A model generated the notes under the pieces. That model was not told the origin of the DNA. It saw nothing but the letters and a program-made list of their open reading frames with translations, and ran no database searches. From an uncultured Acidobacteriota bacterium (GTDB lineage Bacteria > Acidobacteriota > Vicinamibacteria > Vicinamibacterales > SCN-69-37), in NCBI GenBank assembly GCA_963764505.1, contig CAVXSP010000001.1, forward strand, positions 2,036,614 to 2,100,613: a stretch of DNA of 64,000 bases, in the 5' to 3' direction. Within the stretch, counting starts at the first letter, position 1. The number at the start of each line of letters is the position of its first letter. Shown piece after piece: positions 17,000 through 45,390 of this stretch. The translations under genes were made by a program, and so were the position numbers.

Positions 17000-17040
17000 G
17001 CCGAAGCGGCAATGACCCGCTTGCCGGGCGGTCCTTCGGC
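17000..17040. terminator. Possible bidirectional stem-loop between convergent genes
   Basis: gccgaag(17000-06)/cttcggc(17034-40) and cggcaa(17007-12)/ttgccg(17021-26) pair around an 8-nt loop. No U-tract follows. It sits between the stops at 16951 (+) and 17078 (-). Confidence 0.3.
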
Positions 17041-17077
17041 GCCTGAAGATCATGGAGTGGTGGCGTCGGCGCGGGTC

Positions 17078-19326: not shown

Positions 19327-19534
19327 GGCAGGTCGGCGACATTCTATCTGGACCAGCATCTCGCCGCTTGCCGCCCTGTCCCGAGGAGCTCTGGCGAGTT
19401 TGATTAACGGCCAACAAGCCGGCTACGCTGCGGCGCGCGAGTGCTTTCGAAAGCGACCGTGGCAATCGGGCGGACGTACGATGTCGGCCGTGCACGCGAC
19501 AGGATCGCGTCGAAAGAGTTGTCAAGAGGCAAGT

Positions 19535-26241: not shown

Positions 26242-26335
26242 CGGAGCCCGGCCGTCAAGGATACCCGAACGCGTCACGCGAGAGGCGGAGCGGCCCGCAC
26301 CGCACCGACCGTCACGGTCGGCGCCGCCAGTCGCG

Positions 26336-28320
26336 CTACCGTTCCAGAATGACAGCGAGTTCGAAGATGTCCGTGACGTTCCCTGCTGACGTCGGCGTCC
26401 GCAGCCAGCGTGCAACTGATGAAGGCCGCCCGCGAGGGAATGAATGTCCACCAGGAACGCATATGGGCACGTTGTCGTTGTGCTGCGCGACCTGACCGCC
26501 GTCGGCGATGATAGCGACCTCCGCCACGCCGACGTCGTCTGTCCGCCGAGAAGGAACGTGAGAGTCCCGACCCCGAGGCTCACGCTGGCGAGCGAGACCG
26601 TGGGAGGAGTGCTGTCCACCGGTGGAGGTGGCGGCGGTGGGGCGGCGGTGGCGGTGGAGGCGGTGGCGGAGGCGGCGGAGGCGAGCATTGCCGATCGTCA
26701 CCAGCGTGTCCGGCAGCACCGCCACGTTGCCCGCATCGATCGACGTAGCGCGCAGGGTGAGCCGATGAGAGCCGTTCGCGTAGCGCGTGGTGTCGAGGTT
26801 GTAGACGAAGCCCGTCGTGACCGGCATGCCGAGGTAGGTACGCCGAGACGTCGGGACGGGGGATGCCGTAGGTCGCGCTGCCCGCGCGCGCGCCGTCGAC
26901 GAAGACGTCCACGGTCGCGACGAGGGTGTTGTCGATCATCCATCCGCTGATCGGCACCGTCGCCGAAAGCGTCTGGCCCGCGATCGGCCTCTCCACGTAC
27001 CCGTAGCGGCGGCAGCGTGTCGGCGGCGTCCGTCGCCGGCCCGAAGCGCATAGATCGTCTGGCGCGCCGCCCGGTAGTCGCCGGCAATGAGATAGATGTC
27101 ACCTTCGAAGATGCTGTTGGGCGTCAGCGTCATCGGCACGTCCGGTCGGAAGTAGTTGGCGGCATCGCCCATACTCGCCGGTCGCGCCGTCCCACCTCAT
27201 GCCGCTCGTCGTACGGATACTGCTGAGGGACCTACACGGTCAGGCCGACGCCCTTGTCGTTCACGAGCGACGGCCCAGTGCTCGGGGACGTAGCTGAGGC
27301 GCGATGCGCTCGTTCGGATAGGGCAGCGTGCCAATCGTAACGGCGCCGCCGGTCCACGGCGGCGCCGCCGCTGTACTGCACGAACCGGTCCCAGCCGCGA
27401 TTGACGTAGACGGCGGGAAATTCCTGGAACGCGTTGGCGTGCGTGTCGCTGCCCGAGTGCGGTAATCCTGTAGTGCAGCCGGATCGCGTGCGGATCGGCG
27501 GCGACGAAGCTCACCCACTGCTCGATTGACGACGTCGGAGGCCACGGGCCGGCCGGCGACCGCCGCCCTTGTCGTCCGGGTTCCATTCGAGCGGGCGTGT
27601 GAGGATGTGAATCGACTGCGAGTCGGACTCCTGCAGAATCACCGGGCTGCCGGCATTGTATTTGTCGCCGCCCTGGACCGGGTCCCAGCCCCAGACGCCC
27701 GTGCAGCCGGCGCAGTTGTCGTACGCGGCGTTGCCGTCGTAGAGCGCCGCCTGCACCTGCCGCCCCGTGCAGTCGGAGTTGTTGATGAGGTTCTGCCCGC
27801 CGATCACGATCTCCGCGACCGTGCCGCCGCACTTCGTCTCCACGCCCACCCGGATCATGCCGTTGTCGATCCGAATCATCGTGCCGGTCTGGGTCGCCGC
27901 CAGCGTGAAGCTCACTCCCGATCCTTGCAGCAGCCGGTTCTCGCTCGACAGGCCCGAGAGATCGATGCCATAGGCGTACAGCACGTGGGGACGCCCGTCG
28001 CGGTACTCGCTCGGAATGGCGAACGAGTAGCTGTGCAGCCCGCTGGACGCGGCCACGTAGGCGCTGGCGAGCGTCAGGCCGAGGAAGGTGCCCGTCGCGG
28101 CCGGCCCATCGAGATAGAAGTGCACGTAGACAGGCGTGCCCAACGCATCCAGATCCAGAGCCCAGCCCGTGGCATTGCCACTGGCATCGACGCCCGAGAG
28201 CGTGCCGTACACCGGCAGACTGGCTCGCGCGGCCGTCGTCACGCACAGGAGAATCAGAATGGCAGCCGAAAGCGTGGCCATTGGCCGCCGGGCGATGCGG
28301 CGATCGGTCGGAGAAGTCAT
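26336..28320 (-). pseudogene. Large secreted protein with Ig-like domains and a central uncharacterised (possibly glycan-active) domain; at least 6 frame changes as assembled
   Basis: ATG 28320 (or 28281) is followed by a signal peptide (MATLSAAILILLCVTTAARA). The first Ig-like module is GNATGWALDLDALGTPVYVHFYLDG. The central domain is in ORF 27511-28503 (CGGTVAEIVIGGQNLINNSDC...GVWGWDPVQGGDKYNAGSPV). Later pieces lie in several frames: IEQWVSFVAADPHAIRLHYRI; DAANYFRPDVPMTLTPNSIFEGDIYLIAGDY; QTLSATVPISGWMIDNTLVATVDVFVDGARAGSATYGIPRPDVSAYL; MPVTTGFVYNLDTTRYANGSHRLTLRATSIDAGNVAV. A poly-Pro linker and a terminal Ig-like domain (DDVGVAEVAIIADG...NVTDIFELAVILER) close the protein. Confidence 0.6.
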
Positions 28321-30103: not shown

Positions 30104-31408
30104 TCACCGCGCCCACCGCAGGAGCACGGCGCCTCCGGGCACGAGCCGCAGCGGCGCATCGCGGCCGTCGGCCCACGTTCGGGTCGCGGGATCGAACTGC
30201 TGGGGCTGCGCCTCGCCGGCACGCAACCGCAGCGTGATGCCCGCTGCCTGCCGGTAGTCGCGATTGACGATGAGCGCCGCGATTCGTCCGTCCGCGTCCT
30301 CGAACAGACCGGCGGTCGCGGGACCGCCTTCCATCGCGGCGATCGGACCGAGGGGCGGCCGCGGCGCGGTCTCGCCGATGGAGTCGGCGACCGAGACGGA
30401 CCGGAAGCCCTGGAGCTCGTCGGCGATCGCGCGCGCCGTCCGGTTGATGCGCGAGGCCTCCGCGAAGTGCCGCGTCGGCCTGCCGTCTTCGATGAGCCCG
30501 TGGTGGAACTTCATGATGTCGGCGTGCTCGACGTGCACGGGGGTCCAGTACGCGAAGTAGGAGATGCCGCGCGCGCCGTACGCGAGCGCATGGTACGCCT
30601 GCCAGCGCAGCTCGCCCTCGGTCGGATCGCGATAGGTCGCGTGCGGCATCGCCAGGACGATCAGCATGAACGGGACGCCGTGCCGTTCGGACAGCTCGCG
30701 AATGAGCGCCAGGCTCGTGAAGAACGTCGGCCGCGTGCCGGGGATGCCGAACGGGTAGTAGTCGTAGCTCAGGAGCGCCGGCTCGACGGTCGTGACGAAG
30801 CGCTCGACGTAGTCGGGATACGACGCCGCGCCCGCGCCCCCAACCGCGTACTCGGGGAGCAGGTTCACGTACGCGAGGTGGTCCGGGTCGGCCGCGCGCA
30901 GGCGCCCGATGACGGCCGCGAGGCCGGCGAACTGATCGACGACGGGCTCGTCGGCGACGAAGTAGCCGCCGAAGCCGGGCTGGTCGCGGTACTCCGACAC
31001 GGCCGCGTCGAGTGCCGTCTCCCAACCGGGCCGCCCCGGCGCCTCCGCATCGAACCGCGAGTCGGCGATCCACATCACGAGCCCATGGCGCGCGGCGACG
31101 GGCAGGGCCTGCCGCGCGAGCTCGGGCGTCTGCACGCCCTCGCACGGTGGCCCGACGACGGTGAAGCCGGCCCCGGCCATCTCCGCGGCGCGCGCGTCGT
31201 CGAAGAGGGCCAGTGGCGGGCCGCACCAGGCGGTGGTGATGAACGAGGACGCGGGCTGCGTCGCGGCGCTCACAATCGCGCTCGGAGAGCGGAGCGGCGA
31301 GGGACGCGGCGGAGCGCTGGCGCACCCGGCGGCGGCCACGAGCAGAGGCGCCAGCAGCCGAGGAGCTGTGCACACGCGTCCGAGGTGAAGGAGACGTGTC
31401 CGCTTCAC
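30104..31408 (-). CDS. Lipoprotein, putative TIM-barrel glycoside hydrolase
   Basis: GTG 31408 lies inside ORF 30104-31765 (VKRTRLLHLGRVCTAPRLLAPLLVAAAGC, a lipobox-like signal). The mature part has GH-like blocks (GYFVADEPVVDQFAGLAAVIGRLRAADPDHLAYVNLLPEYA, LLSYDYYPF, ISYFAYWTP). The family is not assigned. Confidence 0.55.
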   Translation of the reverse strand: MKRTRLLHLGRVCTAPRLLAPLLVAAAGCASAPPRPSPLRSPSAIVSAATQPASSFITTAWCGPPLALFDDARAAEMAGAGFTVVGPPCEGVQTPELARQALPVAARHGLVMWIADSRFDAEAPGRPGWETALDAAVSEYRDQPGFGGYFVADEPVVDQFAGLAAVIGRLRAADPDHLAYVNLLPEYAVGGAGAASYPDYVERFVTTVEPALLSYDYYPFGIPGTRPTFFTSLALIRELSERHGVPFMLIVLAMPHATYRDPTEGELRWQAYHALAYGARGISYFAYWTPVHVEHADIMKFHHGLIEDGRPTRHFAEASRINRTARAIADELQGFRSVSVADSIGETAPRPPLGPIAAMEGGPATAGLFEDADGRIAALIVNRDYRQAAGITLRLRAGEAQPQQFDPATRTWADGRDAPLRLVPGGAVLLRWAR

Positions 31409-31596
31409 GGCCACGCAGATGCTACGACGCGGCGGCGAATCCGGAAAGGGCACGTCCGCCGGGTGGCGTCGGGCGGCGGCGTTGGCCTTCCGGATAAAAG
31501 TCTTCGTGATGACTGACTTGTCGTACGGAGCGGGGGGCTGCGGACGCGATCCGGTGGCCGCGACTTTGCGTATGCTGGGCGCGCGCGCCAGACCCC

Positions 31597-32736
31597 ATGG
31601 AGCTGACCGGCGAGCAGCAGCGGCTGCAGATATCGGCGATCGAGTTCGCACGACAGGCACTGGGCTACGACATCGTCGCCGCCGACGCGGACGAGCGGTT
31701 CGGGCGGGACACCTGGCGGCGGTGTGCGGAGTTCGGCGTGCTGGGCATGCCGATTCCGGAGGCATTCGGCGGGCTGGGGCTCGGCCTCTCGGCGCTGCTC
31801 GCGGTCATGGAGGGCCTGGGCTACGGGACCCGCGACCAGGGCCTGCTCTTCTCGCTCAATGCGCACCTCTGGACGAACTCGATTCCGATCCTCACCTACG
31901 GGACGGTCGCGCAGCGGACGCGCTGGCTGCCGGGCCTGTGCGACGGCACGCTGATTGGCGCCAACGCGGCGTCGGAGCCGGACGCCGGCTCGGACATCTT
32001 CGGCATGCGCACGCGGGCCGTGCGCGAGGGCGACGTCTACGTGCTGAACGGCGCGAAGACGTTCGTCACCAACGCCCCGGAGGCCGATCTGTTCGTCGCC
32101 TACGCCACGCTCGACCCGGCGCTCGGCGCCATGGGTGTCACGGCGTTCGTCATCGAGCGCGAGACGCCGGGCTGCCGGATCGGCCGTCCGCTGCACAAGA
32201 TGGGTCTGCGGACGTCGCCGATGGCGGAAGTCGTCTTCGAGGACTGCCGCGTGCCCGTCGACAACCGGCTGGGCCGCGAGGGACGCGGCGTCGAGGTCTT
32301 CGAGTGCTCGATGGAATGGGAGCGCGGCTGCATTCTCGCGAGCTGTCTGGGCGTCATGCGGCGGCAGCTCGAGGACTGCATCCGGCACGCCCGCGAACGG
32401 AAGCAGTTCGGGCGGCCGATCGGGAAGTTCCAGTCGGTCGCCAACCGGATCGTCGACATGAAGGTGCGGCTCGAGACCAGCCGCCCGCTCGTCTACCGGA
32501 TCGGCGTGCTGAAGGACGCCGATCAGGAAGCGATGCTGGAGGCGGCCATGGCCAAGCTCTACGTCTCGCAGAGCTTCGTGCAGTCGAGCCTCGACGCCAT
32601 CCAGATCTTCGGCGGCTACGGCTACATGACCGAGCAGAGAGTCGAGCGCGACCTGCGCGACGCGGTCGGCAGCACGCTGTATTCGGGGACGTCGGAGATC
32701 CAGCGCAACCTGATCGCGCGCGCGCTGGGACTGTGA
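31597..32736 (+). CDS. Acyl-CoA dehydrogenase family flavoprotein (probably acting on a carrier-bound substrate)
   Basis: Intact 379-aa ORF with GANAASEPDAGSD, NGAKTFVTNAPEADLFVAYA, GMRTSPMAEVVFEDCRVP, RKQFGRPIGKFQ and IFGGYGYM. The C-terminal block reads YSGTSEIQRNLIA, where MCAD-type enzymes have YEGTSEIQ. Confidence 0.85.
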   Translation: MELTGEQQRLQISAIEFARQALGYDIVAADADERFGRDTWRRCAEFGVLGMPIPEAFGGLGLGLSALLAVMEGLGYGTRDQGLLFSLNAHLWTNSIPILTYGTVAQRTRWLPGLCDGTLIGANAASEPDAGSDIFGMRTRAVREGDVYVLNGAKTFVTNAPEADLFVAYATLDPALGAMGVTAFVIERETPGCRIGRPLHKMGLRTSPMAEVVFEDCRVPVDNRLGREGRGVEVFECSMEWERGCILASCLGVMRRQLEDCIRHARERKQFGRPIGKFQSVANRIVDMKVRLETSRPLVYRIGVLKDADQEAMLEAAMAKLYVSQSFVQSSLDAIQIFGGYGYMTEQRVERDLRDAVGSTLYSGTSEIQRNLIARALGL

Positions 32737-32746
32737 CGAGGACAGA

Positions 32747-32846
32747 AGTTCTTAGTTGTGAGTTGAGAGTTGTAAGTTGGATTGCCCGAACAGAGCGGCC
32801 GAGACGAGTGCCGAGCCTGTAGCCTGTAGCCTGGAGCCCGTAGCCC
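32747..32846. repeat. Two different heptanucleotide tandem arrays filling the ACAD-ACP spacer
   Basis: 32747-32781 reads agttctt agttgtg agttgag agttgta agttgga (5 x AGTTNNN). 32810-32846 reads gccgagc ctgtagc ctgtagc ctggagc ccgtagc cc (5 x the GCTACGG family, reverse orientation). The second array ends directly at the ACP ATG (32847). The variant unit ctGGAGc supplies the only SD-like element. Confidence 0.85.
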
Positions 32847-33104
32847 ATGCCTGAAGTGACCAACGTCAGAGACACGATTCGGCAGTTCATCCTGACCAAG
32901 TACCTGCCCGGAGAGTCGGCCGCGAATCTGCGCGACGACACGCCGCTCCGGACGAGCGGCGTCCTCGATTCGCTCGCCACGCTGGGCCTGGTGAACTTCC
33001 TCGAGAAGGAGTTCGGGATCCAGATCGAGGCGCACGAGACCGGGGTCGACACCTTCGATCGCATTCAGGACATCGCCGCCCTGGTCGAGCGCAAGCGCGC
33101 GTGA
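32847..33104 (+). CDS. Acyl/peptidyl carrier protein
   Basis: Intact 85-aa ORF. The phosphopantetheine attachment motif GVLDSLATLGLVNFLE sits in the expected position of a 4-helix carrier protein. Confidence 0.85.
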   Translation: MPEVTNVRDTIRQFILTKYLPGESAANLRDDTPLRTSGVLDSLATLGLVNFLEKEFGIQIEAHETGVDTFDRIQDIAALVERKRA

Positions 33105-33129
33105 CCGGGCGGGCGGGAGCCGCGCCGCC

Positions 33130-34689
33130 GTGACCAATCATCTTGCCGAGTACCTCGAATCGAGTGCCAGCCGCTTCGGATCGCGGACGGCCGTGGTCGA
33201 TCCGGGCGGTTGGAGCCTGAGCTACGCCGACCTCGACCGCCAGGCCGACGCGCTGGCCGGATGGCTCGCCGCCTCCGGCGTGCGGCCGGGGGACCGCGTC
33301 GGCGTCGTGCTGCCGAAGAGCGTGCCGTCGGTCGTGGCCCTGTTCGGGATCATGAAAGCCGGGGCCGCCTACGTGCCCGTCGACTGCACGGCGCCTGCCG
33401 AGCGCGGCCGGGGCATCCTCGCCGATTGCGCCATCCGCGCGCTCGTCGCGGATGGTTCGTCGCTGGCCACGGCGCCGCCGGCGGGCGCCGGCGGGCCGCT
33501 GCCGGTGATCCTGGTCGGCGAGCCGCCCGACGGCCCGCTCGACGGCGTCCAGCTCGCCCGCTACGACGAAGTGGTCCGCGGCCAGGGGCCGGCGCCCCGG
33601 CTACCCGCGCGATGCCGGGGATCTCGCCTACATCCTCTACACGTCCGGGTCGACCGGCACGCCGAAGGGCGTGATGCTGACGCACCGGAACGCCACGAGC
33701 TTCGTCGACTGGTGTTCGTCGGTCTTCACGCCGGACGAGCACGACCGTTTCAGCAGCCACGCGCCGTTCCACTTCGACCTGTCGGTGCTCGACATCTACC
33801 TGTGCCTCAAGCACGGCGCCACGCTGTTCCTGGTCTCCGAGGCGCTCGGGAAGAATCCGAAGGAGCTCGCGCGATTCGTCGCCGAGCGCCGGCTGACGGT
33901 CTGGTACTCGACGCCGTCGATCCTCGCGCTGCTGCTCCAGTTCGGCGCGCTCGAGACGCTCGACCATACCAGTCTGCGTCTCGTGCTCTTCGCGGGCGAG
34001 GTGTTCCCGGTCAAGCACCTGCGCGACCTCACGCGGGCGTGGCCCCGGCCGGCCTACTACAACCTGTACGGACCGACCGAGACGAACGTCTGCACGTTCG
34101 CGAGGATTCCCACGGAGATCCCGGACGACCGCGACACGCCGTACCCGATCGGGTTCCCGTGCGCGCACTGCGGGACCGTCGTGCTCGACGCCGACGGGCG
34201 GGAGATGGCCGAAGGCGAGGAGGGGCTCCTCTACGTCAGCGGACCCTCGGTATTCGGCGGCTACTGGAACCGCCCGGCCGAGAACGCGGGCGTCTTCGTC
34301 GAGCGCGGCGCTTCGCGCTGGTACAACACGGGCGACGTCGTGCGCTGGGATCCGGCCGAGGGCTACATCTACGTGGGCCGGCGCGATCGCATGGTCAAGC
34401 GGCGCGGCTACCGCATCGAGCTCGGCGAGATCGAGCGGGCGCTCTACCGGCACGCCGAGGTGCGCGAGGCCGCCGTCGTGGCGATTCCCGACGCGGAGTC
34501 CGGCGTCCGGATCGTCGCGTTCCTCGCGTGCGGCGACGCCGTGCCGCCGTCGATCATCGAGATGAAGACGTTCTGCGCGTCGCACCTGCCCGGGTACATG
34601 AGCCCCGATCGCTTTCTGTTCGAGCCGCACCTGCCTCGCACGTCGACCGACAAGGTCGACTACCAGTCGCTGCGGCGGCGGTTGGCTGA
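33130..34689 (+). CDS. Stand-alone adenylation enzyme (DltA / NRPS A-domain-like carrier-protein ligase); frameshift(s) as assembled
   Basis: GTG 33130 starts MTNHLAEYLESSASRFGSRTAVVD...VLPKSVPSVVALFGIMKAGAAYVPVD. The frame changes in the GGGG/CCCC runs at 33585-33598. The sequence then continues as GYPRDAGDLAYILYTSGSTGTPKGVMLTHRN, HAPFHFDLSVLDIYLCLKHGATLFLV, NLYGPTETNV, YNTGDVVRWD, GRRDRMVKRRGYRIELGEIE and PRTSTDKVDY (start of ORF 33671-38374). The stop is probably the TGA at 34687-34689 in the original frame, which implies a second shift near the 3' end. Confidence 0.8.
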   Translation: MTNHLAEYLESSASRFGSRTAVVDPGGWSLSYADLDRQADALAGWLAASGVRPGDRVGVVLPKSVPSVVALFGIMKAGAAYVPVDCTAPAERGRGILADCAIRALVADGSSLATAPPAGAGGPLPVILVGEPPDGPLDGVQLARYDEVVRGQGPAPRLPARCRGSRLHPLHVRVDRHAEGRDADAPERHELRRLVFVGLHAGRARPFQQPRAVPLRPVGARHLPVPQARRHAVPGLRGAREESEGARAIRRRAPADGLVLDAVDPRAAAPVRRARDARPYQSASRALRGRGVPGQAPARPHAGVAPAGLLQPVRTDRDERLHVREDSHGDPGRPRHAVPDRVPVRALRDRRARRRRAGDGRRRGGAPLRQRTLGIRRLLEPPGRERGRLRRARRFALVQHGRRRALGSGRGLHLRGPARSHGQAARLPHRARRDRAGALPARRGARGRRRGDSRRGVRRPDRRVPRVRRRRAAVDHRDEDVLRVAPARVHEPRSLSVRAAPASHVDRQGRLPVAAAAVG

Positions 34690-34718
34690 CCGTCGCCGGC
34701 GACTTCGGGAGCGGCGTC

Positions 34719-37281
34719 GTGAGCGACCCGTCCGCCATCACCGGCGTCTCGGAGCGTCTCGACACCGGCCCGGCGCGGCCGAAGGCGGAGGTCGCCGCCG
34801 AGGCGGTGAGCCTGCCGCTGTTTGCCGCCATTCTCGTGCCGCTCGCCGCGCTGTGGCTCGTGATCGATCACTTCGGGCTCGAGAGCAACGCCGTGTCCAG
34901 GCTGGTGCTCATCACGTGCCTCGGCTTCTCCGTCCACTACTTTCTGCCGCTGCGGTTCCGCCTGCCGTTCTTCCTCGGCCTGTCGGTGTTCGCGCTCGGG
35001 TTCGTGCTCGGCGTGGGTCCGGCCGCCTGGATCGTCGGCATCGGGCTGACGCTCATCGGGCTGTGCCATCTGCGGGCGGCGTTTCGCACACGGCTGGTCC
35101 TGGTCTGCGCCGCGGGCCTCGCGATCGTCGCCGCGCGCGCCGGGCTGGCGCACGTGCCGGTGCCCGCCTCGGTCTGGCCGATCCTGGGATCCCTGTTCAT
35201 GTTCCGGCTGATCGTCTACCTGTACGACATCCGGCACGATCCGTCGCTCGCGTCCTTCTGGCCCTCGCTGTCGTATTTCTTCCTGCTGCCCAACGTCTGC
35301 TTCCCGCTGTTTCCCGTCGTCGACTACAAGACATTCCGCACGACGTACTACCGCGGCGACCGCCATGCGATCTACGCCGGCGGCCTGCAGTGGATCTTCC
35401 GCGGCGTCGTGCAGTTGATTCTGTACCGGGTCGTCTATCAGACGCTCGTGATCGAGCCGACGGCCGTGGCCAGCGCGTGGGACCTCGGCCAGTATTTCAT
35501 CTGGCCGTTCCTCCTGTACTTCCGCGTCTCGGGCCAGTTCCACGTGGTGATCGGCCTGCTGCGGCTGTTCGGCTTCGGTCTGCCCGAGACCCACCACGAG
35601 TACTTCCTGGCCTCGAGCTTCACGGACTTCTGGCGCCGGATCAACATCTACTGGAAGGACTTCATGATGAAGCTCTTCTACTATCCGGCCTACTTCGCCC
35701 TGCGGAAACGCGGCCCGGTGCTGGCGCTCGTCGTCTCGACCGTCATCGTCTTCGCCTCGACCTGGCTCCTGCACTCGTACCAGTGGTTCTGGCTGCGCGG
35801 CGTCTTTCAGGTCGGCTGGACGGACACCGTGTTCTGGTCCGTGCTGGGCGTCCTGGTCGTGTTCAACGCGCTGCGCGAGTGGCGGCGGGGCCGGGCGCGC
35901 GCGCTGACCGCGCGCACCTTGTCCTGGCCCGAGACGCTCGGCCTCGCGGCCCGGACCGTCGGGATGTTCTGCTTCGTGTGCGTGCTCTGGTCGCTCTGGA
36001 GCACGGAGTCCCTTGGCACCTGGCTCTCGCTGTGGCCGGCCATCGTGCACTGGTCGCCGGCGCCGGGCTGGACGGCCGTGGCGGCGCTCGGGGTTCCCGT
36101 GGCCGTCGGCCTCGTCGCGATCGCCAAGAGCCGGCGATGGGCGCCGGCCCCCGATCTCGGCCACGGCGGCCGGGCCGTCGTCATCCTGGCCGTCTCGGCC
36201 TGCCTCGTCGTCGGCAGCTCGTTCCGCGTGGCGGCGCACCTGGGGCCGGTCGGACGGATGATGACGGACCTGCGCTCCAGCGGCCTCAACCAGGCGGACG
36301 CGGTCGCGATGGAGCGCGGCTACTACGAGAACCTGATGGGCGTGGATCGCTTCAACGGCGAGCTGTGGGCGCTCTACATGAACCGGCCGCTCGACTGGGG
36401 CGGGACGCTGCTCGAAGAGGGGCTGGCGCGGCCGCTGAGCGGGTTCGTGCCCTACGAGCTCCTGCCGTCGGCGAGCGGACGGTTCAAGGGCGTGACCCTC
36501 CGGACGAATGCGTGGGGCATGCACGACAAGGAGTACGCGCGGACGCCGCCGGCCGGCTGCGAGCGCATCGCCATGCTGGGCGCCTCGCACGCCATGGGCA
36601 GCGGCGTCGAGCGGGAACGCACGTTCGAGGCGCTGGTCGAGGACCGGCTCAATCGGGAGCAGCCCGGCCGGTGCGTCGAGATCCTCAACTTCGCGGTCTA
36701 CGGGTACAATCCGCTCTATCAGCTCCAGATTCTCGACGACCGCGTGCTGGGATTCCAGCCGGACGCCATCCTCTACGTCGCGCATCCCGAGGACTCGCTC
36801 CGCGTCGTCCGCTACCTGACGCAGCTCGTGCGCGACGGCAAGCCGCTGCCCTACGAGTTCCTGCGCCGGATCGTGCGGGAGGCGCAGGTGGCGCCGGGGG
36901 AGTCCGAGCGCGTCATCTCGCAGCGCCTGGCGCCGTTCCGGGAACGGATCCTCGGCGATCTCTACGCCGCCATGGTCGACTCGGCCCGGCGGCGCGGGGT
37001 CTGTCCGGGCCTCGTGTACCTACCGATGGTGCCGGCCATGCAGTACGCCGTGGACGTCGAGCGGGAGAAGCGCCTTGCGACGGACGCGGGTTTCAGCCTG
37101 CTCGACCTGGCCGGCGTCTACGACGTGCCGGACCGCGACGCGCTCTGGATCGCGCAGTGGGATGCCCACCCGAACGCGCGCGGGCACGCGCTCGTGGCCG
37201 ATCGGCTGTATGCGCTGCTGCAGCGCGAAGGCTCGCTTCTCGCGTGCCGCGCCAGCGACGCGGGCCGGCCCGGGACGCTGA
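34719..37281 (+). CDS. MBOAT-family membrane O-acyltransferase (DltB/AlgI-like) fused to an SGNH/DltD/AlgJ-like extracytoplasmic domain
   Basis: GTG 34719 opens ORF 34719-37736. The first ~470 aa are polytopic with MBOAT blocks (SFTDFWRRINIYWKDFMMKLFYYPAYF, ASTWLLHSYQWFW). The C-terminal part has SGNH-like blocks (IAMLGASHAMGSGV, NFAVYGYNP, WDAHPNARGHALVADRLYALL). The convergent sulfotransferase ends at 37298, so the real stop is most likely the TGA at 37279-37281 in another frame. The 3' end is uncertain. Confidence 0.75.
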
Positions 37282-37297
37282 CATTCGGCGCGCCGCT

Positions 37298-38259
37298 TCA
37301 CGCGTTGTCGATCTGTGCGGCGTACCGCACGGCCGCGTGGTCGGATGCCTCGTCCTCGCCGCACAGGATCGACCGATTCGCCGATCAGGTCCGGCCACTC
37401 GGAGAAGGTGCGGCCGACGAGTCGGCTCAACACGTCGACGCGGCCGGCCAGCCGCTCGCGCAGGTATTCCCGCGCCGCGCCCATCCGTACCGACGTGCGG
37501 TCGATGGGACGATAGGCGGCGAGATCGACCGTGTTCAGGACGGATCCGGCAGACGGGATTTCACCTGCTGCCATCGCCAACCCTGTGTGAACCGGACGAG
37601 CGGACGGGCGAAGCGCCGCGCCTGGCGGAGCTGCGCGCCCCGCACGTTGTGCTTCTCGCTCGTGTCGATCGGCACGTCCGGGTCCACGCCGAGCCAGGTG
37701 AACAGCCGCCGGAACAGACCGGCCGGGTCTCGCTGAAGCTCGGCGAGGGTGAGCAGGAAGATCTGGTCGCGGTCGAACAGCTCGAGATACGGTTCAAGCT
37801 GGTACGCGTAGTCGCTGCGCGCGATGTAGTCGTCCCGCGTACGCACCGCCTCCTCGGGGCCGAGGGTCTCTCGGCCGTCGGCCACGAAATGCCAGTAGTG
37901 GCTGATCGCCCTCTCGACCGGATGCCGCAGCATGTAGACGATGCGCGCGGCCGGATTGAACGCCCAGATCCGCTGGGCGCAGCCGCCGACCCAGTGGCGG
38001 GCCGAGTAGCTCGTGCTCGACTCGCCTGCGTACATGACTGCGCCCGCCATCGCGAACAGCCGCAGGTACCAGCCGATCCCGGGCTCCGGGTAGGGCTGGC
38101 CCTGACCCCACATGCGGCCTCTCGCGAGATGGGGCGCGAAGTACTGCGGCTCCTTGAACGCCGACATGAAGATCTGGGGGTGCTGGTGCAGGTACGCGTG
38201 AAGCGACGAGGTCCCCGCCTTCATGGCTCCGATGATGAACAGATTCGGAAAGATCGGCA

Positions 38260-38263
<4 letters not shown>
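37298..38263 (-). CDS. PAPS-dependent sulfotransferase, 2 frameshifts as assembled
   Basis: ATG 38263-38261 overlaps the asnB stop (ATGA). It starts MMPIFPNLFIIGAMKAGTSSLHAYL (5'-PSB loop) and carries YMLRHPVERAISHYWH (3'-PB motif) in ORF 37535-38356. It continues in ORF 37020-37580 (GEIPSAGSVLNTVDLAAYRPIDRTSVRMGAAREYLRERLAGRVDVLSRLVGRTFSEWPDLIGES). A third frame holds the end (ILCGEDEASDHAAVRYAAQIDNA, stop 37300-37298). Confidence 0.75.
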
Positions 38264-40206
<1,943 letters not shown>

Positions 40207-40222
40207 GGGTGGTCGCTACCTC

Positions 40223-40346
40223 AAGCCAGAAGCCAGAAGCCAGAAGCCAGAAGCCAGAAGGGTGGAAGTTACTCTCATTCGATTGAAGAAAGCTGACTCG
40301 CGTCAGCGCGTTCGCCACTTCCGGCCTCTGGCTTCTGGCCTCTAGC
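40223..40346. repeat. Inverted pair of GCCAGAA heptamer arrays flanking a 57-nt spacer
   Basis: 40223-40260 holds 5.4 x aagccag. 40318-40346 reads cttccgg cctctgg cttctgg cctctag, the reverse complement family. The spacer contains a perfect small hairpin, gctgac-tcgc-gtcagc (40292-40307). The element lies between the GT4 3' end and the asnB start. Confidence 0.9.
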
Positions 40347-41459
40347 TTTCGCGCTGACAACCCGCCGATACACCCCGGCATACTCCGCTATCATCCGATC
40401 GATCGTGAACCGGGATTCCACTCGCTGCCGGGCGGCGAGCCCGAGCCGCGCGCGCAGCTCCGGCGCCGCCGCGAGATCGTCGAGCACGCGCGCGAGCGCG
40501 TGCGGATCGCGCGGCGCGACGAGGCGGCCGCAGCCGTCGTCCACCACTTCCGGCGTGCCGCCGACGCGGGTCGCGACGACCGGGAGCGCGGCCGCCATGG
40601 CCTCCAGGATCGTCAGCGACACGCCTTCGCTGAGAGAACTGTTCGCATATACGTCGCAGCCCGCCAGCCACTCCCGCGCATCGTCCCGGAAGCCCACGAA
40701 CGCGACCCGATCGCGGATCCCGCACTCGCTCGCCAGCCGCTCCAGCGACGCGCGCTCCGACCCGTCGCCGACGACGACCAGGCGCGCCCGGCGGCGGCGG
40801 GCCAGGTCGGCGGTCGCCCGGACGAGCGTGCCCAGATCCTTGACCGGGTCGAGCCGCGCGATGGTTCCGATGACCAGCTCGCCCTCGTCGGCCCCCAGAT
40901 CGCGCCGCGCGTGCGCGCGGGCCGCCGGGTCGGGCACGACGCCGGGGTCGATGCCGTTGTAGATGACCCGGACCGATGCCGGCGGGAATCCCTCCCCGAT
41001 GAGGTGGCGCTTGACGTCCTCGGAGACCGCGAACACGGCCGTGGGCAGACGTTTGAACAGGACGTTCGCCGCGCGCCGCTTCGTCGACGGCGGCGCGTCC
41101 GACAACCGTCCGTGCTCGGTGAAGACGACCGACACGCCGGGCGCCCATGCGCGCGCGAGCGCGCCGTAGACGAACGGCGAGTAGTGATGCGCGTGAATCA
41201 GATCGATCTGCTGCGTGCGGCACAGCCTGGCGATCGCCTGTCCCAGGGACGGGCGGAAGCCCGGCCCGCGCCGAAGCGCCGAGACGGCGATGCCTTCGCG
41301 CTCGAGCAGCGACGCCCACGCCCCGGGCTCGTCCAGGCAGCAGACCGCCATCGGCCACTCGGGATGCAGGCGCGCCGCGAGCTCGGTGACGAGCCGCTCG
41401 GTGCCGCCTGGATTCAGGCTGAGCACGAGCTGCAGAACGCGGGGCGGACGTTCGGTCAC
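40275..41459 (-). CDS. Glycosyltransferase family 4 (PEP-CTERM/EPS-locus sugar transferase type)
   Basis: Intact 394-aa ORF with GTG 41459. It carries VLQLVLSLNPGGTERLV, IHAHHY, ARLDPVKDLGTLV and the EX7E region SLSEGVSLTILEAMAAALPVVATRVGGTPEVV. The last ~20 codons read through heptamer units (ARGQKPEAGS). Confidence 0.85.
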   Translation of the reverse strand: MTERPPRVLQLVLSLNPGGTERLVTELAARLHPEWPMAVCCLDEPGAWASLLEREGIAVSALRRGPGFRPSLGQAIARLCRTQQIDLIHAHHYSPFVYGALARAWAPGVSVVFTEHGRLSDAPPSTKRRAANVLFKRLPTAVFAVSEDVKRHLIGEGFPPASVRVIYNGIDPGVVPDPAARAHARRDLGADEGELVIGTIARLDPVKDLGTLVRATADLARRRRARLVVVGDGSERASLERLASECGIRDRVAFVGFRDDAREWLAGCDVYANSSLSEGVSLTILEAMAAALPVVATRVGGTPEVVDDGCGRLVAPRDPHALARVLDDLAAAPELRARLGLAARQRVESRFTIDRMIAEYAGVYRRVVSAKARGQKPEAGSGERADASQLSSIE

Positions 41460-41465
41460 GGCGAG

Positions 41466-41535
41466 CTTCTCACTTCTGGCTTCTGGCTTCTGGCTTCTGG
41501 CTTCTGGCCTCTGGCTTCTGGCTTCTGGCTTCCTC
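41466..41535. repeat. GCCAGAA-family heptamer array (~10 units, reverse orientation)
   Basis: The units are cttctca cttctgg x4 cctctgg cttctgg x3 cttcctc. On the minus strand the array encodes the EARSQKP-repeat C-terminal tail of the DUF218 protein and ends 7 nt before the GT4 start codon. Confidence 0.9.
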
Positions 41536-42234
41536 CGTCCACCCCTGCCAGCGATGGTCCCGAATCGCCGCGTGCTCGTACAGCGCGTCGCGGCTCAGCC
41601 GGAGCGCGTAGTAGGACGGAACCCAGCGCGCCCACCCGGTCGTCGGCGGCTCGACGTCGACCGGGGACGGCACCAGCACCACGCGGACGTTGGCGTCGGC
41701 CACGAGCGCCGCGACCCGCGGCATCTGCAGCCGCGAGGCCACCAGTGCCGCCCGCGCGCCCGGATGGCTGGCAAAGAAGCGCACCACCCAGGCGATCTGC
41801 GCCCGCGTGTTGTAGGTCGTCGGATCGAGACGGATATCGTCGTAGCGCACACCGCTCCGCCACAGCGCGTCGAGCATCCACGGGTTGCCAAGCAGCCAGA
41901 CGCGGCTCGGGTGCGTGAGGTCGAACAGCTCCTTGGACTGCTGCACCCGGCCGCGGCGGTTGTCTCCGTCGAAGACGATGAGCGCGTCGAGCGCGCGGCG
42001 GTCGAGCGCCGGCTGCGCCGGCACGGCAGGGAGGTGGCTGGCAATCGTCGTCGCGACCGCCGGCACGCTCAGCAGGCCGTACAGTCCGAACACCGCCGCG
42101 AGCCACGTCCGGGCGAGCCGCCTCCGACGCGGCCAGGCCACCCGCAGCCCGAGTCCGACCAGAGTCGCCGCGACGAGAAAGGGAATGGACCCTGGCGCGC
42201 CGAGGCTCTTCAGCAGCCACAGCGCATGCGTCAC
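41470..42234 (-). CDS. DUF218 / YdcF-ElyC-like protein
   Basis: Intact 254-aa ORF with GTG 42234 overlapping the upstream stop (GTGA). Two N-terminal TM helices are followed by ALIVFDGDNRRGR, TYNTRAQIAWV and VASRLQMPR, as in the DUF218 family. The C-terminal 22 aa are encoded by the heptamer array. Confidence 0.7.
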   Translation of the reverse strand: MTHALWLLKSLGAPGSIPFLVAATLVGLGLRVAWPRRRRLARTWLAAVFGLYGLLSVPAVATTIASHLPAVPAQPALDRRALDALIVFDGDNRRGRVQQSKELFDLTHPSRVWLLGNPWMLDALWRSGVRYDDIRLDPTTYNTRAQIAWVVRFFASHPGARAALVASRLQMPRVAALVADANVRVVLVPSPVDVEPPTTGWARWVPSYYALRLSRDALYEHAAIRDHRWQGWTEEARSQKPEARSQKPEARSQK

Positions 42235-44042
42235 GAGGTGCCCAGCAATTCACGGAGGGCCCGGACGGCCGCCTGCTGAGCGGCGGAGAGCTCGAGCTTC
42301 TCGACGGAATCCAGCTCGGCGCGCGCGCGGGCGGACTCGTGCACGGCTGCGTGAATCGTCGCCGCGTGGATCAGGACGTCCGGGTTCTGCCCGAGCCGCG
42401 AGACCGCCATCTCCAGGAACGGCACGGCGGCGTTGTCGTCGCCGAGCAGATGATGGATCCAGCCCACCGTGTCGGCGATGGCCGGATCCTGCTGCAGCCG
42501 GTAGGAGCGCTGCGCGATTGTCAGTGCCTCCTGGGCGCCGTGCCCGTACTCGGCCAGGTAGTACGCCAGGTTGTTCAGCGCCATCGCGTTCTCGGGATCC
42601 AGGTCGGCGATGCGCCGGTAGCGCTCGATGCTCTTGGCGTACTCCTGGCGGACGGCGTACAGCTCCGCCAGCTGGGTCTGCGCGGCGAGGAGGCGGGGCT
42701 CGATCTCCGTCGCGCGGACGAGCAGGCTCTCGACGTTGGTCCGATCGCCGCGCGCCACCTCGCTCTCGAGCTTCAGCACGAGCTTCACGCCGGCCGGCTT
42801 CAGGCCCCCGGCGTCGGCGATCGCCAGACGGCGCTGCGCGAAAATCGCCGGCAGCTCGGTCTCGGGATCGAGGCCCTTGTCGATCTCCTCGGGCGCGAGC
42901 CACGTCCGCGGGAACGGGGTGCACAGCGGATCGCCGATCACGACCGTCTGCCAGCTCAGGAACGGCATCGCGAGGTAGAAGGACTCCGCGAGGGTGAAGC
43001 CCGACACGTAGGCGGGGAACAGAATCTGGGGCCGGATGGTGGCGTCGAGATACGGTTCGCTGACGTGCGCGGCGACGCCGGTGAGGCCGTCCCGGATCAG
43101 GTCCCCGGCCAGTGACTGAAAGCTGCCGTGAAATTGCGGCCCGCCGTCCGGGCCGCTCGGATTCCAGCTCGCGGGAGGCTCCGTGAACGTCCGGCCGTCG
43201 CTGCTGACGTACATCGCCCCGATCGCGCCGGGATTGAACACGAGCCCGGACCGGCGCTGCAGGTGCGCCGGGGCCGGGTCGTTCGACCCCCAGGAGTAGT
43301 AGCCGATCGCGGGATCCGTCGTCGAGACCGCATCAGGCGTCGTGTCCAGCAGAACCTGGCCCGCCACGGGCGTGTGCGCGAGACGCTCGGCGGCCTCCTG
43401 CAGCCACTGATCGCCGCCGCGATCGACGAAACTGGCCTTCTCGTCGAGGATGACTCTCCCCTGCGCGACAGGCGCGACCCCGCGATCGATGAGCCGCATC
43501 ACGTCGTCGACGGTGAAGCCGTCGAGCCGCGTGACGAGATACAGGTCGGAATCCACGCGCGTGAAGCGGCGAGCCTCGGCCGGAGTCCTGGTGCCGAGGA
43601 AATACGGGTTCGGCACGCGGCCCAGGACCGGGAGGATGGCGCCGAGCGATTTCCTGTAGAGCAGGGTCAGCTCGGAGTCCACGCTCGCGACGGTGCCGTC
43701 GCGCCCCCCCGTGCCTTCGATGCGCAGCGGCACGCCCTTCGTCAGAACGATATAGAGGATTCTGTCCTGGAGCGCCTGGCGGGCGAGCGCCGCCGCGATC
43801 GGGACCTCGATCGTCTGCCCGTAGACCGCCCGCGAAACCGCCTCCGTCGCCGGCGTATGCAGCCGGACGACGTGGTTCTCGCTCACCTGGCGGACCTTCG
43901 CGTAGTATTCGCCGATCTGGACCGACGCGGGGCTATCCGCGTTGACGACGACGAGCACGTTCTCCGCGGTCTGGGCCCGGCCGGGCTGGGCAACCAGGAG
44001 GAGTCCGAGCGTCGCGAGAAGAGCAGCGGTGAGGGCGCGCAT
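42231..44042 (-). CDS. Secreted protein: uncharacterised N-terminal ~430-aa domain (resembles what I recall as the TIGR03790 family) plus C-terminal TPR repeats
   Basis: ATG 44042 lies inside ORF 42231-44117 (MRALTAALLATLGLLLVAQPGRAQT signal peptide). It carries VLVVVNADSPASVQIGEYYAKVR, ILYIVLTKGVPLRI, YLVTRLDGFT, AAHVSEPYLD and TVVIGDPLC. The C-terminal region has TPR-like repeats (AMALNNLAYYLAEYG...). Confidence 0.7.
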   Translation of the reverse strand: MRALTAALLATLGLLLVAQPGRAQTAENVLVVVNADSPASVQIGEYYAKVRQVSENHVVRLHTPATEAVSRAVYGQTIEVPIAAALARQALQDRILYIVLTKGVPLRIEGTGGRDGTVASVDSELTLLYRKSLGAILPVLGRVPNPYFLGTRTPAEARRFTRVDSDLYLVTRLDGFTVDDVMRLIDRGVAPVAQGRVILDEKASFVDRGGDQWLQEAAERLAHTPVAGQVLLDTTPDAVSTTDPAIGYYSWGSNDPAPAHLQRRSGLVFNPGAIGAMYVSSDGRTFTEPPASWNPSGPDGGPQFHGSFQSLAGDLIRDGLTGVAAHVSEPYLDATIRPQILFPAYVSGFTLAESFYLAMPFLSWQTVVIGDPLCTPFPRTWLAPEEIDKGLDPETELPAIFAQRRLAIADAGGLKPAGVKLVLKLESEVARGDRTNVESLLVRATEIEPRLLAAQTQLAELYAVRQEYAKSIERYRRIADLDPENAMALNNLAYYLAEYGHGAQEALTIAQRSYRLQQDPAIADTVGWIHHLLGDDNAAVPFLEMAVSRLGQNPDVLIHAATIHAAVHESARARAELDSVEKLELSAAQQAAVRALRELLGTS

Positions 44043-44199
44043 TGCTTCGCGGGTGTGATGCGAACCGCGCGCCACATTTCCTGGGGCGGTTCCCGGGCGT
44101 ACGCCGGGGCTGCTCACCCGTGCGGGATGGAACTACTGAGAAGGTATCCGATCGGCAGACTTTTCTCCGGTCGGCGAGGCTCGGGAGGGAGAACCCGTC

Positions 44200-45105: not shown

Positions 45106-45171
45106 CCGCGAGCTCTCCCGTCCGTCTCAACTCTCAGGCCCGAAGACCGGGGCCGACTCGGCCGGCGAGGT

Positions 45172-45187
45172 TGCAAGAACAGTTCCG
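45172..45187 (-). promoter_or_regulatory. Candidate sigma-54 (-24/-12) promoter for the PEP-CTERM gene
   Basis: The minus strand reads cGGAAC-tgttc-TTGCAa against the consensus TGGCAC-N5-TTGCA. GG and GC have the correct 12-nt register. The predicted TSS lies about 55 nt upstream of ATG 45105. Confidence 0.45.
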
Positions 45188-45358
45188 GCTCAGGCGTGAT
45201 GGAAACCTGCCCGTGAACACGCGAAAAGCGGACGTCCTCATCGGCGCAAGGTCTGCAGCCGGGAGACTTTAGTTAGAGCTTCCGGCTCGCCTGTCGATCG
45301 CCTCACGAGGCGCCCCTGCGACCGCCGGCTGCCGGACCGCGACGGGTCAGGGCCTGCC

Positions 45359-45375
45359 GGGCACAGAACCTGCTT
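45359..45375 (+). promoter_or_regulatory. Candidate sigma-54 (-24/-12) promoter for the TPR lipoprotein gene
   Basis: The sequence gGGCAC-agaac-cTGCTt has the GG/GC spacing of the consensus. It leaves only a ~6-nt leader before GTG 45391, which weakens either the promoter or the start call. Confidence 0.3.
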
Positions 45376-45390
45376 GTGAGGGGACCTGGC

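Follow-up and report, generated by a model that had tools for sequence, protein, structure and literature searches.

Organization of the Locus

We analyzed a stretch of 64,000 nucleotides from an uncultured Acidobacteriota bacterium (Vicinamibacterales, SCN-69-37; assembly GCA_963764505.1, contig CAVXSP010000001.1), which is called the window here and is numbered from its first letter. Positions 31597-37281 of the plus strand hold four co-directional genes, which encode a flavoprotein of the acyl-CoA dehydrogenase (ACAD) family, a carrier protein, an adenylase and a fusion of an MBOAT membrane acyltransferase with an SGNH domain. The original prediction, made from the letters of the window, had described them as a close-packed cassette, and every motif that it quoted from their products was located on the plus strand. 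The first three genes are separated by 110 nt and 25 nt, and the fusion gene starts with a GTG at 34719 that overlaps the stop codon (TGA) of the adenylase gene by 4 nt. The proportion of G+C at third codon positions is about 0.9 across the frames of the cassette. The features of the cassette are as follows.

31597..32736, plus strand: FAD enzyme of the ACAD family, prolyl-carrier-protein dehydrogenase subtype, 379 aa
32847..33104, plus strand: type II carrier protein, 85 aa
33130..34722, plus strand: stand-alone amino-acid adenylation enzyme with predicted specificity for L-proline, in three frame pieces
34719..36218, plus strand: MBOAT-fold half of the fusion, about aa 1-500, from the predicted structure
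36318..36335, plus strand: GYYENL linker motif of the fusion, aa 534-539, from conservation among homologues
36396..37253, plus strand: SGNH/GDSL-fold domain of the fusion, about aa 560-845, from Foldseek matches and invariant residues; predicted to be periplasmic
37254..37736, plus strand: uncertain C-terminal tail of the fusion reading frame, with indels relative to the sister contig L001

The comparisons below draw mainly on 83 loci, consisting of 80 fetched genome loci, a metagenome contig (L001), a Microvirga plasmid locus and the window itself; single loci are referred to by L numbers. L001 (ENA ERZ25039539 contig_16490) is 99.0% identical to window positions 30104-47277, from which it differs by 147 substitutions and 21 indels in a blastn alignment. 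Upstream of 30104 it matches the window at 26709-28193 only, with 85% identity.

The end of the cassette at 37281, as given originally, stands in part. This position is not a stop in the frame of the fusion, which remains open to 37736, and is the stop of an open reading frame (ORF) in another frame (37075-37281). The sister protein P0001 (854 aa), on the other hand, terminates at the equivalent of 37281, and four indels relative to L001 between 37254 and 37297 separate the two ends. The window tail up to 37736 overlaps a convergent sulfotransferase gene, and tails vary among homologues. The conserved SGNH domain finishes near 37253 whichever end is used.

The Adenylase Is Predicted to Activate L-Proline

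The adenylase was scored as a frame-repaired protein. It passes the NCBIfam model for amino-acid adenylation (TIGR01733, 378 bits, cut-off 317.4) and matches Pfam AMP-binding and AMP-binding_C. The core motifs are found at 33623-33673 (LAYILYTSGSTGTPKGV), 33767-33799 (FHFDLSVLDIY), 34061-34087 (NLYGPTETN), 34322-34345 (YNTGDVVR) and 34376-34435 (GRRDRMVKRRGYRIELGEIE). The two DltA models NF003417.0 and TIGR01734 fail with 288.6 and 279.7 bits against cut-offs of 476 and 560, and so does an exosortase-associated ligase model (260 bits, cut-off 592). When the whole protein was compared with structures in the PDB, the best single-domain match was PltF (6O6E, 333 bits), which is named there as L-proline--[L-prolyl-carrier protein] ligase, and DltA reached about 226 bits. 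A fragment of 167 aa that contains the substrate pocket scored 145 bits to PltF; DltA reached at most 90 and everything else at most 91.

The Stachelhaus code of the adenylase reads DLLYLALVCK. Checked against both reference enzymes, its nine internal residues D-L-L-Y-L-A-L-V-C are the same in PltF 6O6E, whereas DltA has D-L-M-T-(M/L)-C-T-V-A, so that five or six of the nine differ. The code positions were mapped to motif anchors by the GrsA numbering; the identity with PltF at the aligned positions is independent of this mapping. The adenylase also keeps Asp235, the residue that binds the alpha-amino group. Furthermore, this code recurs in cassette adenylases of many phyla, 44 in all. DLLYLALVCK itself is found in 23 of them, and the rest vary mainly at position 299 or 239. 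The enzyme is therefore predicted, from its sequence, to be specific for L-proline.

The Flavoprotein and the Carrier Protein Resemble Partners in Prolyl Oxidation

In the ACAD the Pfam domains Acyl-CoA_dh_N, Acyl-CoA_dh_M and Acyl-CoA_dh_1 are each above their cut-offs. Among NCBIfam families the best are PigA with 439.5 bits (cut-off 500) and RedW, the model for L-prolyl-PCP dehydrogenase, with 416.9 bits (cut-off 650), followed by a family at 291 bits. Since PigA and RedW lead by about 125-150 bits yet stay under their cut-offs, the enzyme belongs to the same subfamily and is not a curated equivalog. FadE-type models reached 35-241 bits, compared to 417-440 bits for the prolyl-carrier dehydrogenases. 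The three best PDB matches were AnaB (4IRN, "prolyl-ACP dehydrogenase") with 437 bits, 6CXT_B with 338 and PigA (5ZW0) with 313, and ordinary ACADs scored 278 or less. AnaB and the window ACAD share about 51% identity. We take 6CXT to be the complex of Bmp3 with the carrier protein Bmp1.

Two motifs had attracted attention before, a Ser in place of the Glu of MCAD-type enzymes and an alternative Glu in MEWER, and both turned out to be features of the whole family. Glu242 of SMEWERG (32320-32322) is found in 41 of 41 cassette ACADs and Ser363 of YSGTSEIQ (32683-32685) in 40 of 41, and AnaB has both traits. Glu242 is a candidate for the catalytic base. In a crude neighbor-joining tree, AnaB nests inside the radiation of cassette ACADs. 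The ACAD of L005, 63% identical, is the nearest outgroup of the subclade of the window, and an ACAD from Mycetohabitans (L082) falls in this region as well.

In L085 (17444-18992) the genes for the alpha and beta subunits of electron-transferring flavoprotein adjoin the cassette ACAD. This arrangement suggests that, at least in certain hosts, the ACAD passes its electrons in vivo to electron-transferring flavoprotein rather than to oxygen.

The carrier protein passes the Pfam PP-binding model with 22.5 bits (cut-off 20.8). Ser42 in GVLDSL (32970-32972), the site of phosphopantetheine attachment, is invariant in 50 of 50 homologues. Its best PDB matches were 6CXT_A (35 bits), which we take to be the Bmp1 carrier protein, PigG and PltL, with DltC weaker at 20.8 bits; the E-values of 1e-7 to 2e-4 are modest. 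In most related loci the carrier gene directly adjoins the fusion gene. The best NCBIfam family of the carrier is annotated for ornithine-lipid synthesis ("ACP_for_OlsHI", 100 bits, cut-off 130). We rejected this OlsH/OlsI lead, as OlsH is reported to work without a requirement for an acyl carrier protein and no GH3-like gene was found near the cassette. The suggestion in the original prediction that adenylase, carrier and ACAD form a triad for prolyl-carrier oxidation is thus borne out by the PltF code, the AnaB, PigA and RedW matches of the flavoprotein and the prolyl-carrier matches of the carrier.

The Last Gene Encodes a Predicted MBOAT-SGNH Fusion

Sequence profiles say little about the N-terminal half of the fusion. 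Pfam returned no family for aa 1-502 even at E <= 10, and a profile of the fusion family searched against PDB sequences matched neither DltB nor any further MBOAT and gave marginal hits to GDSL esterases only. The DltB model TIGR04091 gave 17.9 bits against a cut-off of 375 (E = 0.0015). An AlphaFold2 model built with 35 homologues reached a mean pLDDT (predicted local distance difference test) of 86 and a pTM (predicted template modeling score) of 0.84. The best Foldseek matches of the MBOAT half in the PDB were DltB (6BUG_C, 8JEM), followed by HHAT and PORCN, with a probability of 1.00, E-values of 1e-5 to 1e-4 and a target TM score of about 0.5. For the SGNH half, Foldseek matched the SGNH esterases TesA, EstA and Axe2, and Pfam Lipase_GDSL_2 scored 25.5-29.4 bits, under its cut-off of 32.9. 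The fusion of an MBOAT with an SGNH domain, predicted earlier from motifs, is thus carried by the predicted fold. The likeness of its C-terminal domain to DltD did not hold at the profile level, as neither the DltD nor the AlgX models matched the C-terminal 343 aa even at E <= 10.

Among the 35 homologues (44-82% identity), His352, Ser623, Asp815, His817 and the linker residues G534, Y535, Y536, E537 and L539 are invariant. His352 lies in LLHSYQW (35772-35774), Ser623 in block I, GASHAMGSG (36585-36587), and Asp815 and His817 in block V, WDAHPN (37161-37169). The MBOAT core is followed by two extra transmembrane helices (aa 451-471 and 482-499). Loops 391-402 and 472-481 are strongly basic, which places them in the cytoplasm, and loops 361-366 and 429-450 are uncharged. 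Following the positive-inside rule, aa 500-854, and with them the SGNH domain, are therefore predicted to be extracytoplasmic. The GYYE residues lie between helix 482-499 and the SGNH domain in a segment (531-548) with a pLDDT below 50, which is presumably flexible. An exact FxYxxF motif was not found in the fusion; this disordered linker has the invariant GYYExL instead. By analogy, GYYENL is a candidate for an internal acyl-shuttle tyrosine motif.

These results bear on a reading as a Dlt system for D-alanylation, or as a misread gene set for fatty-acyl activation and beta-oxidation. The DltA and DltC models give sub-threshold matches, DltB is the top fold match and the ACAD has general acyl-CoA dehydrogenase domains. 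All the same, we regard this reading as extremely improbable. The adenylase misses the DltA cut-off by a wide gap, differs from DltA at most pocket positions, passes the amino-acid adenylation model and keeps Asp235, and the FadE-type models score far below the prolyl-carrier dehydrogenases. In other words, the adenylase has a PltF-type pocket and does not side with fatty-acyl ligases, and the best matches of the ACAD are PigA, RedW and AnaB, not FadE. The Dlt logic proposed originally survives at the level of architecture, with DltB as the top structural match and an SGNH domain outside the cytoplasm. It does not extend to the parts, since the adenylase, carrier and SGNH components are not Dlt orthologues and the tests for DltA, DltB and DltD all fail.

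Frame Breaks in the Adenylase Gene

As assembled, the adenylase gene is broken. Three-frame translation reads it in frame 1 from 33130 to 33601, in frame 2 from 33603 to 34686 and again in frame 1 from 34690 to 34722. The first 157 codons lie in frame 1 and all A-domain core motifs in frame 2. The second break restores the frame of the last 11 codons and of the TGA that overlaps the GTG of the fusion. Where a single frameshift had been noted before, we found two breaks.

33602..33602, plus strand: extra T relative to L001, first frame break, from the blastn indel list and three-frame translation
34687..34689, plus strand: two extra bases (34687 and 34689) relative to L001, second frame break, from the blastn alignment

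Could the cassette of the window be a pseudogene remnant, with real frameshifts, no acyl-carrier made and the modification lost? The two breaks themselves speak for it, and the extra T at 33602 does not belong to a homopolymer. Furthermore, the C-terminal tail of the fusion is disturbed by indels, and an in-frame stop at 25600 interrupts a GT4 gene in another part of the window. In L001, however, the adenylase is intact (529 aa) and another gene is broken. An AsnB-type gene that is intact in the window (38260-40206) is split in L001 (12073-14017) by two 1-nt deletions, equivalent to window positions 39545 and 39688. Each assembly thus has a broken gene of its own, which suggests that both carry scattered indel errors. 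The substitutions point in the same direction. A real shift would leave 360 codons untranslated; within these, window and L001 differ by 8 synonymous and 1 non-synonymous changes, and across the whole cassette by 18 and 7. The synonymous excess in the supposedly dead stretch indicates that purifying selection acted on this frame during practically the entire divergence of the two sequences. In addition, the ACAD, carrier and fusion genes are all intact. We consequently regard a pseudogene as unlikely. Judged from these sequences, the intact L001 copy and the 8:1 ratio make it most likely that the breaks stem from misassembly or arose very recently; the copy in the window may contain sequencing errors or be freshly inactivated.

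The Four Genes Form a Conserved Module

The fusion belongs to a large family. A word-indexed search gave more than 3,599 matches, with at least 1,032 representatives at 50% identity and E <= 1e-30. The top 150 homologues are mostly full length (830-960 aa), and the family is presently annotated as hypothetical, DltB or AlgI. To see which genes recur with it, all ORFs of at least 70 aa from the 83 loci were clustered all-against-all. Only four families recur: the fusion is present in all 83 loci, the carrier in 55, the adenylase in 48 and the ACAD in 44. Other recurrent clusters are antisense shadows of cassette genes. Shadows aside, this clustering yielded no fifth conserved gene; a halogenase alone recurs, in nine loci.

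In 35 loci the sequence extends 5 kb or more to each side of the fusion; 23 of these contain all four families, and their co-occurrence is more than chance. The genes appear in at least six orders, e.g., ACAD-carrier-adenylase-fusion in Vicinamibacteria, adenylase-ACAD-fusion-carrier and fusion-carrier-adenylase-ACAD. The cassette is conserved in at least nine bacterial phyla, and its carriers include Acidobacteriota, Planctomycetota, Gemmatimonadota, Rhodothermales, Hydrogenedentota, Nitrospirota, Methylomirabilota and Alpha-, Beta- and Gammaproteobacteria. A shuffled order with linkage kept over these lineages argues for a functional module. Relatives of Accumulibacter and of methanotrophs have the cassette, and cultured carriers include Methylomonas subterranea SURF-2, Paraglaciecola arctica BSs20135 and Microvirga sp. 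VF16.

Several loci depart from the four-gene pattern. Two fusion paralogues (36-45% identical to the query) were found in L005, L012, L025, L026, L034, L068, L070-L072, L076, L078 and L080, in tandem in most of these and convergent in L034. The fusion is accompanied by a carrier gene only in L040, L063 and L084 and stands alone in L022, L030, L057, L058 and L062. The fusion family may hence serve more than one acyl donor or acceptor. In L082, a megaplasmid of Mycetohabitans endofungorum, a carrier-adenylase-ACAD triad (8702-11686; 46% and 62% identity) lies in a large nonribosomal peptide synthetase (NRPS) cluster that has no fusion gene. The triad is evidently common to natural-product and cell-surface pathways. 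Mycetohabitans makes endopyrroles (PMC12306442), and L082 may be the cluster responsible.

Halogenases in Sister Loci Favor a Pyrrole Product

A flavin-dependent halogenase gene of the Trp_halogenase family lies beside the cassette in nine of the 83 loci and also in L085.

Cassette halogenases: L005 12842-14185; L085 13095-14441; also in L008, L014, L027, L035, L052, L063, L076 and L080

In L005 (Pirellulales), the one locus whose halogenase was compared with solved structures, the gene is located between two carrier genes, and its product scores 562 bits to 5BUK, presumably Mpy16, and 559 bits to PltA (5DBJ). Halogenases of the PltA/Mpy16 type act on pyrrolyl-S-carrier proteins. Their presence in sister loci therefore favors a pyrrole, and the oxidized product is most likely, as far as the sequences tell, pyrrole-2-carboxyl-S-carrier rather than pyrroline. 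It also implies that lineages with the halogenase would carry halogenated pyrrole groups.

The other possible product is 1-pyrroline-5-carboxyl (dehydroprolyl), formed by a two-electron oxidation, which would give a polymer with a cyclic imine ester. AnaB, which reportedly stops at 1-pyrroline-5-carboxyl-ACP, is the best characterized match of the ACAD, with 437 bits compared to 313-338 bits for PigA and 6CXT_B; PigA, and 6CXT_B if it is Bmp3, are taken here as pyrrole-forming. In the tree AnaB nests within the cassette clade, and the window and most related loci are without a halogenase. Yet the ACADs of halogenase-bearing cassettes are interspersed with that of the window and up to 63% identical to it, and an exposed pyrroline-5-carboxyl ester would, on general chemical grounds, be labile both hydrolytically and chemically. 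Delivery of a pyrroline group hence appears rather unlikely, and we continue with pyrrole-2-carboxyl as the favored product.

The Cassette Lies Among Polysaccharide Genes

The window is rich in genes for polysaccharide synthesis. It encodes GT2, GT4 and WbsX glycosyltransferases, a CsaB-like pyruvyl transferase, a polysaccharide deacetylase and a PMT_2 protein. Further neighbors are the sulfotransferase convergent with the fusion, the AsnB-type amidotransferase, whose best family is the XrtA/PEP-CTERM amidotransferase, a TIGR03088-like glycosyltransferase, PrsT-like TPR proteins, and a histidine kinase with a sigma-54 response regulator. At 44200-45105 on the minus strand, 7 kb from the cassette, a protein with a signal peptide ends in a canonical PEP-CTERM segment (SPVPEPASLLLLGTGLALGGGMLRRARRKHQKL / VPEPASLLLLGTGLALGGGMLRRARRK; VPEP-hydrophobic-RRARRK) and weakly matches the flocculation protein PepA. 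The placement of the cassette in a PEP-CTERM and exopolysaccharide (EPS) locus, as originally proposed, is correct for this protein and for the polysaccharide genes. No exosortase (EpsH/Xrt) model, however, matched any of 40 window ORFs scanned against NCBIfam. Families of the XrtA system are the best for four neighboring genes and second-best, after NtrX, for the response regulator, and they remain under their cut-offs (amidotransferase TIGR03108, 535 of 817 bits; glycosyltransferase TIGR03088, 227 of 409; PrsT, 282 of 312; response regulator TIGR02915, 427 of 503). We therefore speak of an EPS locus of PEP-CTERM flavor and not of a demonstrated exosortase system.

From this gene context we infer that the acceptor is the polysaccharide of the surrounding locus. 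Acceptors or products other than decorated EPS would be a membrane lipid, a lipid-linked intermediate, peptidoglycan, the PEP-CTERM protein or a small molecule. The assignment to EPS comes from the gene neighborhood, the Mycetohabitans triad serves an NRPS cluster without a fusion, and the best NCBIfam family of the carrier is tied to ornithine lipids, albeit under its cut-off. On the other side, the four loci with annotated neighbors, the window, L084, L085 and L086, are all rich in polysaccharide genes. The precomputed annotations of the latter three list glycosyltransferases, priming transferases, AsnB homologues, sulfotransferases, methyltransferases and stand-alone SGNH proteins. Moreover, the bacterial MBOAT-SGNH systems described in PMC12148441 and PMC9558356 act on envelope or secreted glycopolymers such as teichoic acids. 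We consider an acceptor or product of another kind quite improbable and retain EPS as the acceptor.

Other Features of the Window

No Rfam family matched anywhere in the window at gathering thresholds, and scans for sigma-70 promoters and terminators between 31000 and 38000 found none. A sigma-54-like site (TGGCCGCGACTTTGC, 31555-31569), 28 nt upstream of the ACAD start, was considered and dismissed, as the window contains 42 matches to the pattern and 52 are expected by chance. The site is kept in the sister contig only; the same locus encodes a sigma-54 activator. A divergent ORF (30104-31765, minus strand) was rejected as a member of the cassette, since it has no family match and no homologue in other loci.

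Tandem heptanucleotide repeats, perfect or near-perfect and of 4.6 to 19 copies, occupy short intergenic gaps of the window, often immediately 5' of start codons. They are located at 32814-32845, 40223-40260, 41465-41532, 53909-53940, 53984-54119, 58820-58854, 59803-59856 and 59868-59931, and their units include AGCCTGT, AAGCCAG, GCTTCTG, GCCTCTG and GAAGCCA. One array abuts the ATG of the carrier gene. The two arrays that pass an equal score threshold within the region shared with L001 are present there too, and none was found in more distant Vicinamibacteria loci. Beside the GAAGCCA array, just 3' of the sigma-54 response-regulator gene, an 8-nt unit (AACCCCGG) is repeated 4.6 times at 58854-58889.

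The split GT4 gene (24892-26688, minus strand) has its N-terminal Glyco_transf_4 domain in 25600-26688 and its C-terminal half in 24892-25533; the in-frame stop at 25600-25602 is either a sequencing error or the mark of a pseudogene. The polysaccharide block at 4000-21000 has a G+C content of 0.59-0.65, compared to about 0.70-0.74 elsewhere in the window, as is typical of horizontally exchanged glycan-synthesis cassettes.

Discussion

On balance, we favor by a small degree the view that the cassette directs a proline-derived, carrier-dependent O-acylation of an extracytoplasmic polymer, in which a thiotemplated pyrrole triad is joined to an MBOAT-SGNH transacylase. In such a pathway the adenylase would activate L-proline with ATP and load it onto the phosphopantetheine arm of the 85-aa carrier, as predicted from its PltF-identical code. 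The FAD enzyme would then oxidize the prolyl-S-carrier. Its family and the halogenases of sister loci point to a four-electron oxidation to pyrrole-2-carboxyl-S-carrier as the likeliest outcome, with the two-electron product 1-pyrroline-5-carboxyl-S-carrier as the alternative. By analogy to DltB/DltX and PatA, the acyl-carrier could dock on the cytoplasmic face of the MBOAT half, where His352 would catalyze passage of the acyl group through the membrane, probably onto a tyrosine of GYYE on the flexible periplasmic linker. Finally, Ser623 of the SGNH domain may take over the acyl group and esterify a hydroxyl of the polysaccharide made by the EPS/PEP-CTERM locus, a step suggested by gene context.

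The first half of this pathway has several known counterparts. Like the cassette, PltF/PltL/PltE, PigI/PigG/PigA, RedM/RedO/RedW and Bmp4/Bmp1/Bmp3 combine a proline adenylase, a type II carrier and an ACAD, and they provide the best family or structure matches for all three proteins as well as the same code in PltF. Known triads of this kind feed a polyketide synthase (PKS), an NRPS or a soluble transferase for a small molecule. Here, in contrast, the conserved partner is a membrane-bound MBOAT-SGNH fusion inside polysaccharide loci. The anatoxin-a proteins AnaC/AnaD/AnaB are close in another respect, since AnaB, the closest solved relative of the window ACAD, has SMEWERG and YSGTSEIQR as well. 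The pyrroline-5-carboxyl-ACP made by AnaB is said to be a PKS starter unit, whereas the cassette has no PKS and a transmembrane acyltransferase as the downstream partner. In clorobiocin and coumermycin biosynthesis, pyrrole-2-carboxyl made on a carrier by CloN4/CloN5/CloN3 is esterified to a sugar hydroxyl with CloN2/CloN7. That acceptor is the deoxysugar of a cytoplasmic antibiotic intermediate; the transferases are soluble, and neither membrane translocation nor a polymer is involved.

The second half resembles the acylation of surface polymers. Dlt is the only characterized MBOAT/SGNH pathway that is fed by an aminoacyl-carrier protein and not by acyl-CoA (PMC12148441). The cassette has the same order of logic, from adenylase to carrier, MBOAT, SGNH and polymer, but uses proline instead of D-alanine, adds an oxidation and combines MBOAT and SGNH in one polypeptide. 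It has no DltX microprotein, the possible shuttle motif being internal and following two extra helices. Its SGNH domain is unmatched to DltD, and its hosts are mostly Gram-negative and environmental. In DltX and PatA the tyrosine of an extracytoplasmic FxYxxF motif carries the acyl group (PMC12148441). PatA/PatB, AlgI/AlgJ/AlgX and WssH/WssI have an MBOAT with two extra C-terminal helices, an extracytoplasmic Tyr motif and a separate periplasmic SGNH protein (PMC12148441, PMC9558356). The helix arrangement of PatA, AlgI and WssH resembles that of the fusion model. These O-acetylation systems differ in using acetyl-CoA as donor, in having a separate SGNH protein and no carrier, and in placing FxYxxF at the C-terminus, while the GYYExL of the fusion is internal. 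Apart from Dlt, the MBOAT/SGNH pathways lack a carrier protein, and their SGNH partners have been described as separate proteins only (PMC12148441, PMC9558356). OatA-type AT3-SGNH fusions likewise unite a membrane domain for acyl translocation and an extracytoplasmic SGNH domain in one polypeptide and form an acyl-Tyr intermediate (PMC12148441); the AT3 fold is, however, unrelated to MBOAT and the donor is acetyl-CoA.

A number of points weigh against the proposed pathway. The adenylase of the window is broken as assembled, with an extra T at 33602 outside any homopolymer. The ACAD falls short of both the PigA and the RedW equivalog cut-offs, AnaB as its nearest characterized relative nests in the cassette radiation, and the window has no halogenase. 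The MBOAT call draws on a predicted structure with modest Foldseek scores and has no Pfam or profile match at the sequence level. GYYENL differs from the published FxYxxF and lies about 35 residues past the last membrane helix. In about one third of the full-flank loci no triad lies near the fusion, which has a carrier only or stands alone, and the fusion family is therefore not restricted to this donor. Substrate, product and acceptor are all read from the genes, and so is the chemistry as a whole.

What appears to be new is the combination of a known triad with a fused MBOAT-SGNH protein, which is widespread and unannotated. Literature searches for MBOAT together with prolyl, pyrrole-2-carboxyl or halogenase, for pyrrole-2-carboxyl together with exopolysaccharide, and for the code strings returned no description of it, within an incomplete coverage. 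Probably the cassette, by way of the fusion, links pyrrole-2-carboxyl or dehydroprolyl groups as esters to an extracellular polymer, a chemistry that we infer from the encoded proteins. Somewhat short of an even chance, in our estimate, is the broader proposal of a widespread decoration. EPS would carry ester-linked pyrrole-2-carboxyl, chlorinated or brominated where a PltA-type halogenase is present, and the enzyme would be the first natural MBOAT-SGNH fusion, with an internal Tyr shuttle, in the second carrier-fed MBOAT pathway after Dlt.

If this holds true, aromatic and perhaps halogenated pyrrole esters would extend the set of substituents on bacterial surface polymers, which includes acetyl, succinyl, pyruvyl and D-alanyl groups. 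Charge, hydrophobicity, UV absorbance and enzymatic resistance of the EPS of soil, sediment and wastewater bacteria would be altered, and carrier-protein natural-product chemistry would be linked with cell-envelope acylation. A natural single-chain MBOAT-SGNH enzyme could help to resolve how acyl groups pass the membrane. The analysis gives an annotation to a large unnamed family of fusion proteins, and several carriers of the cassette are cultured and hence experimentally tractable.

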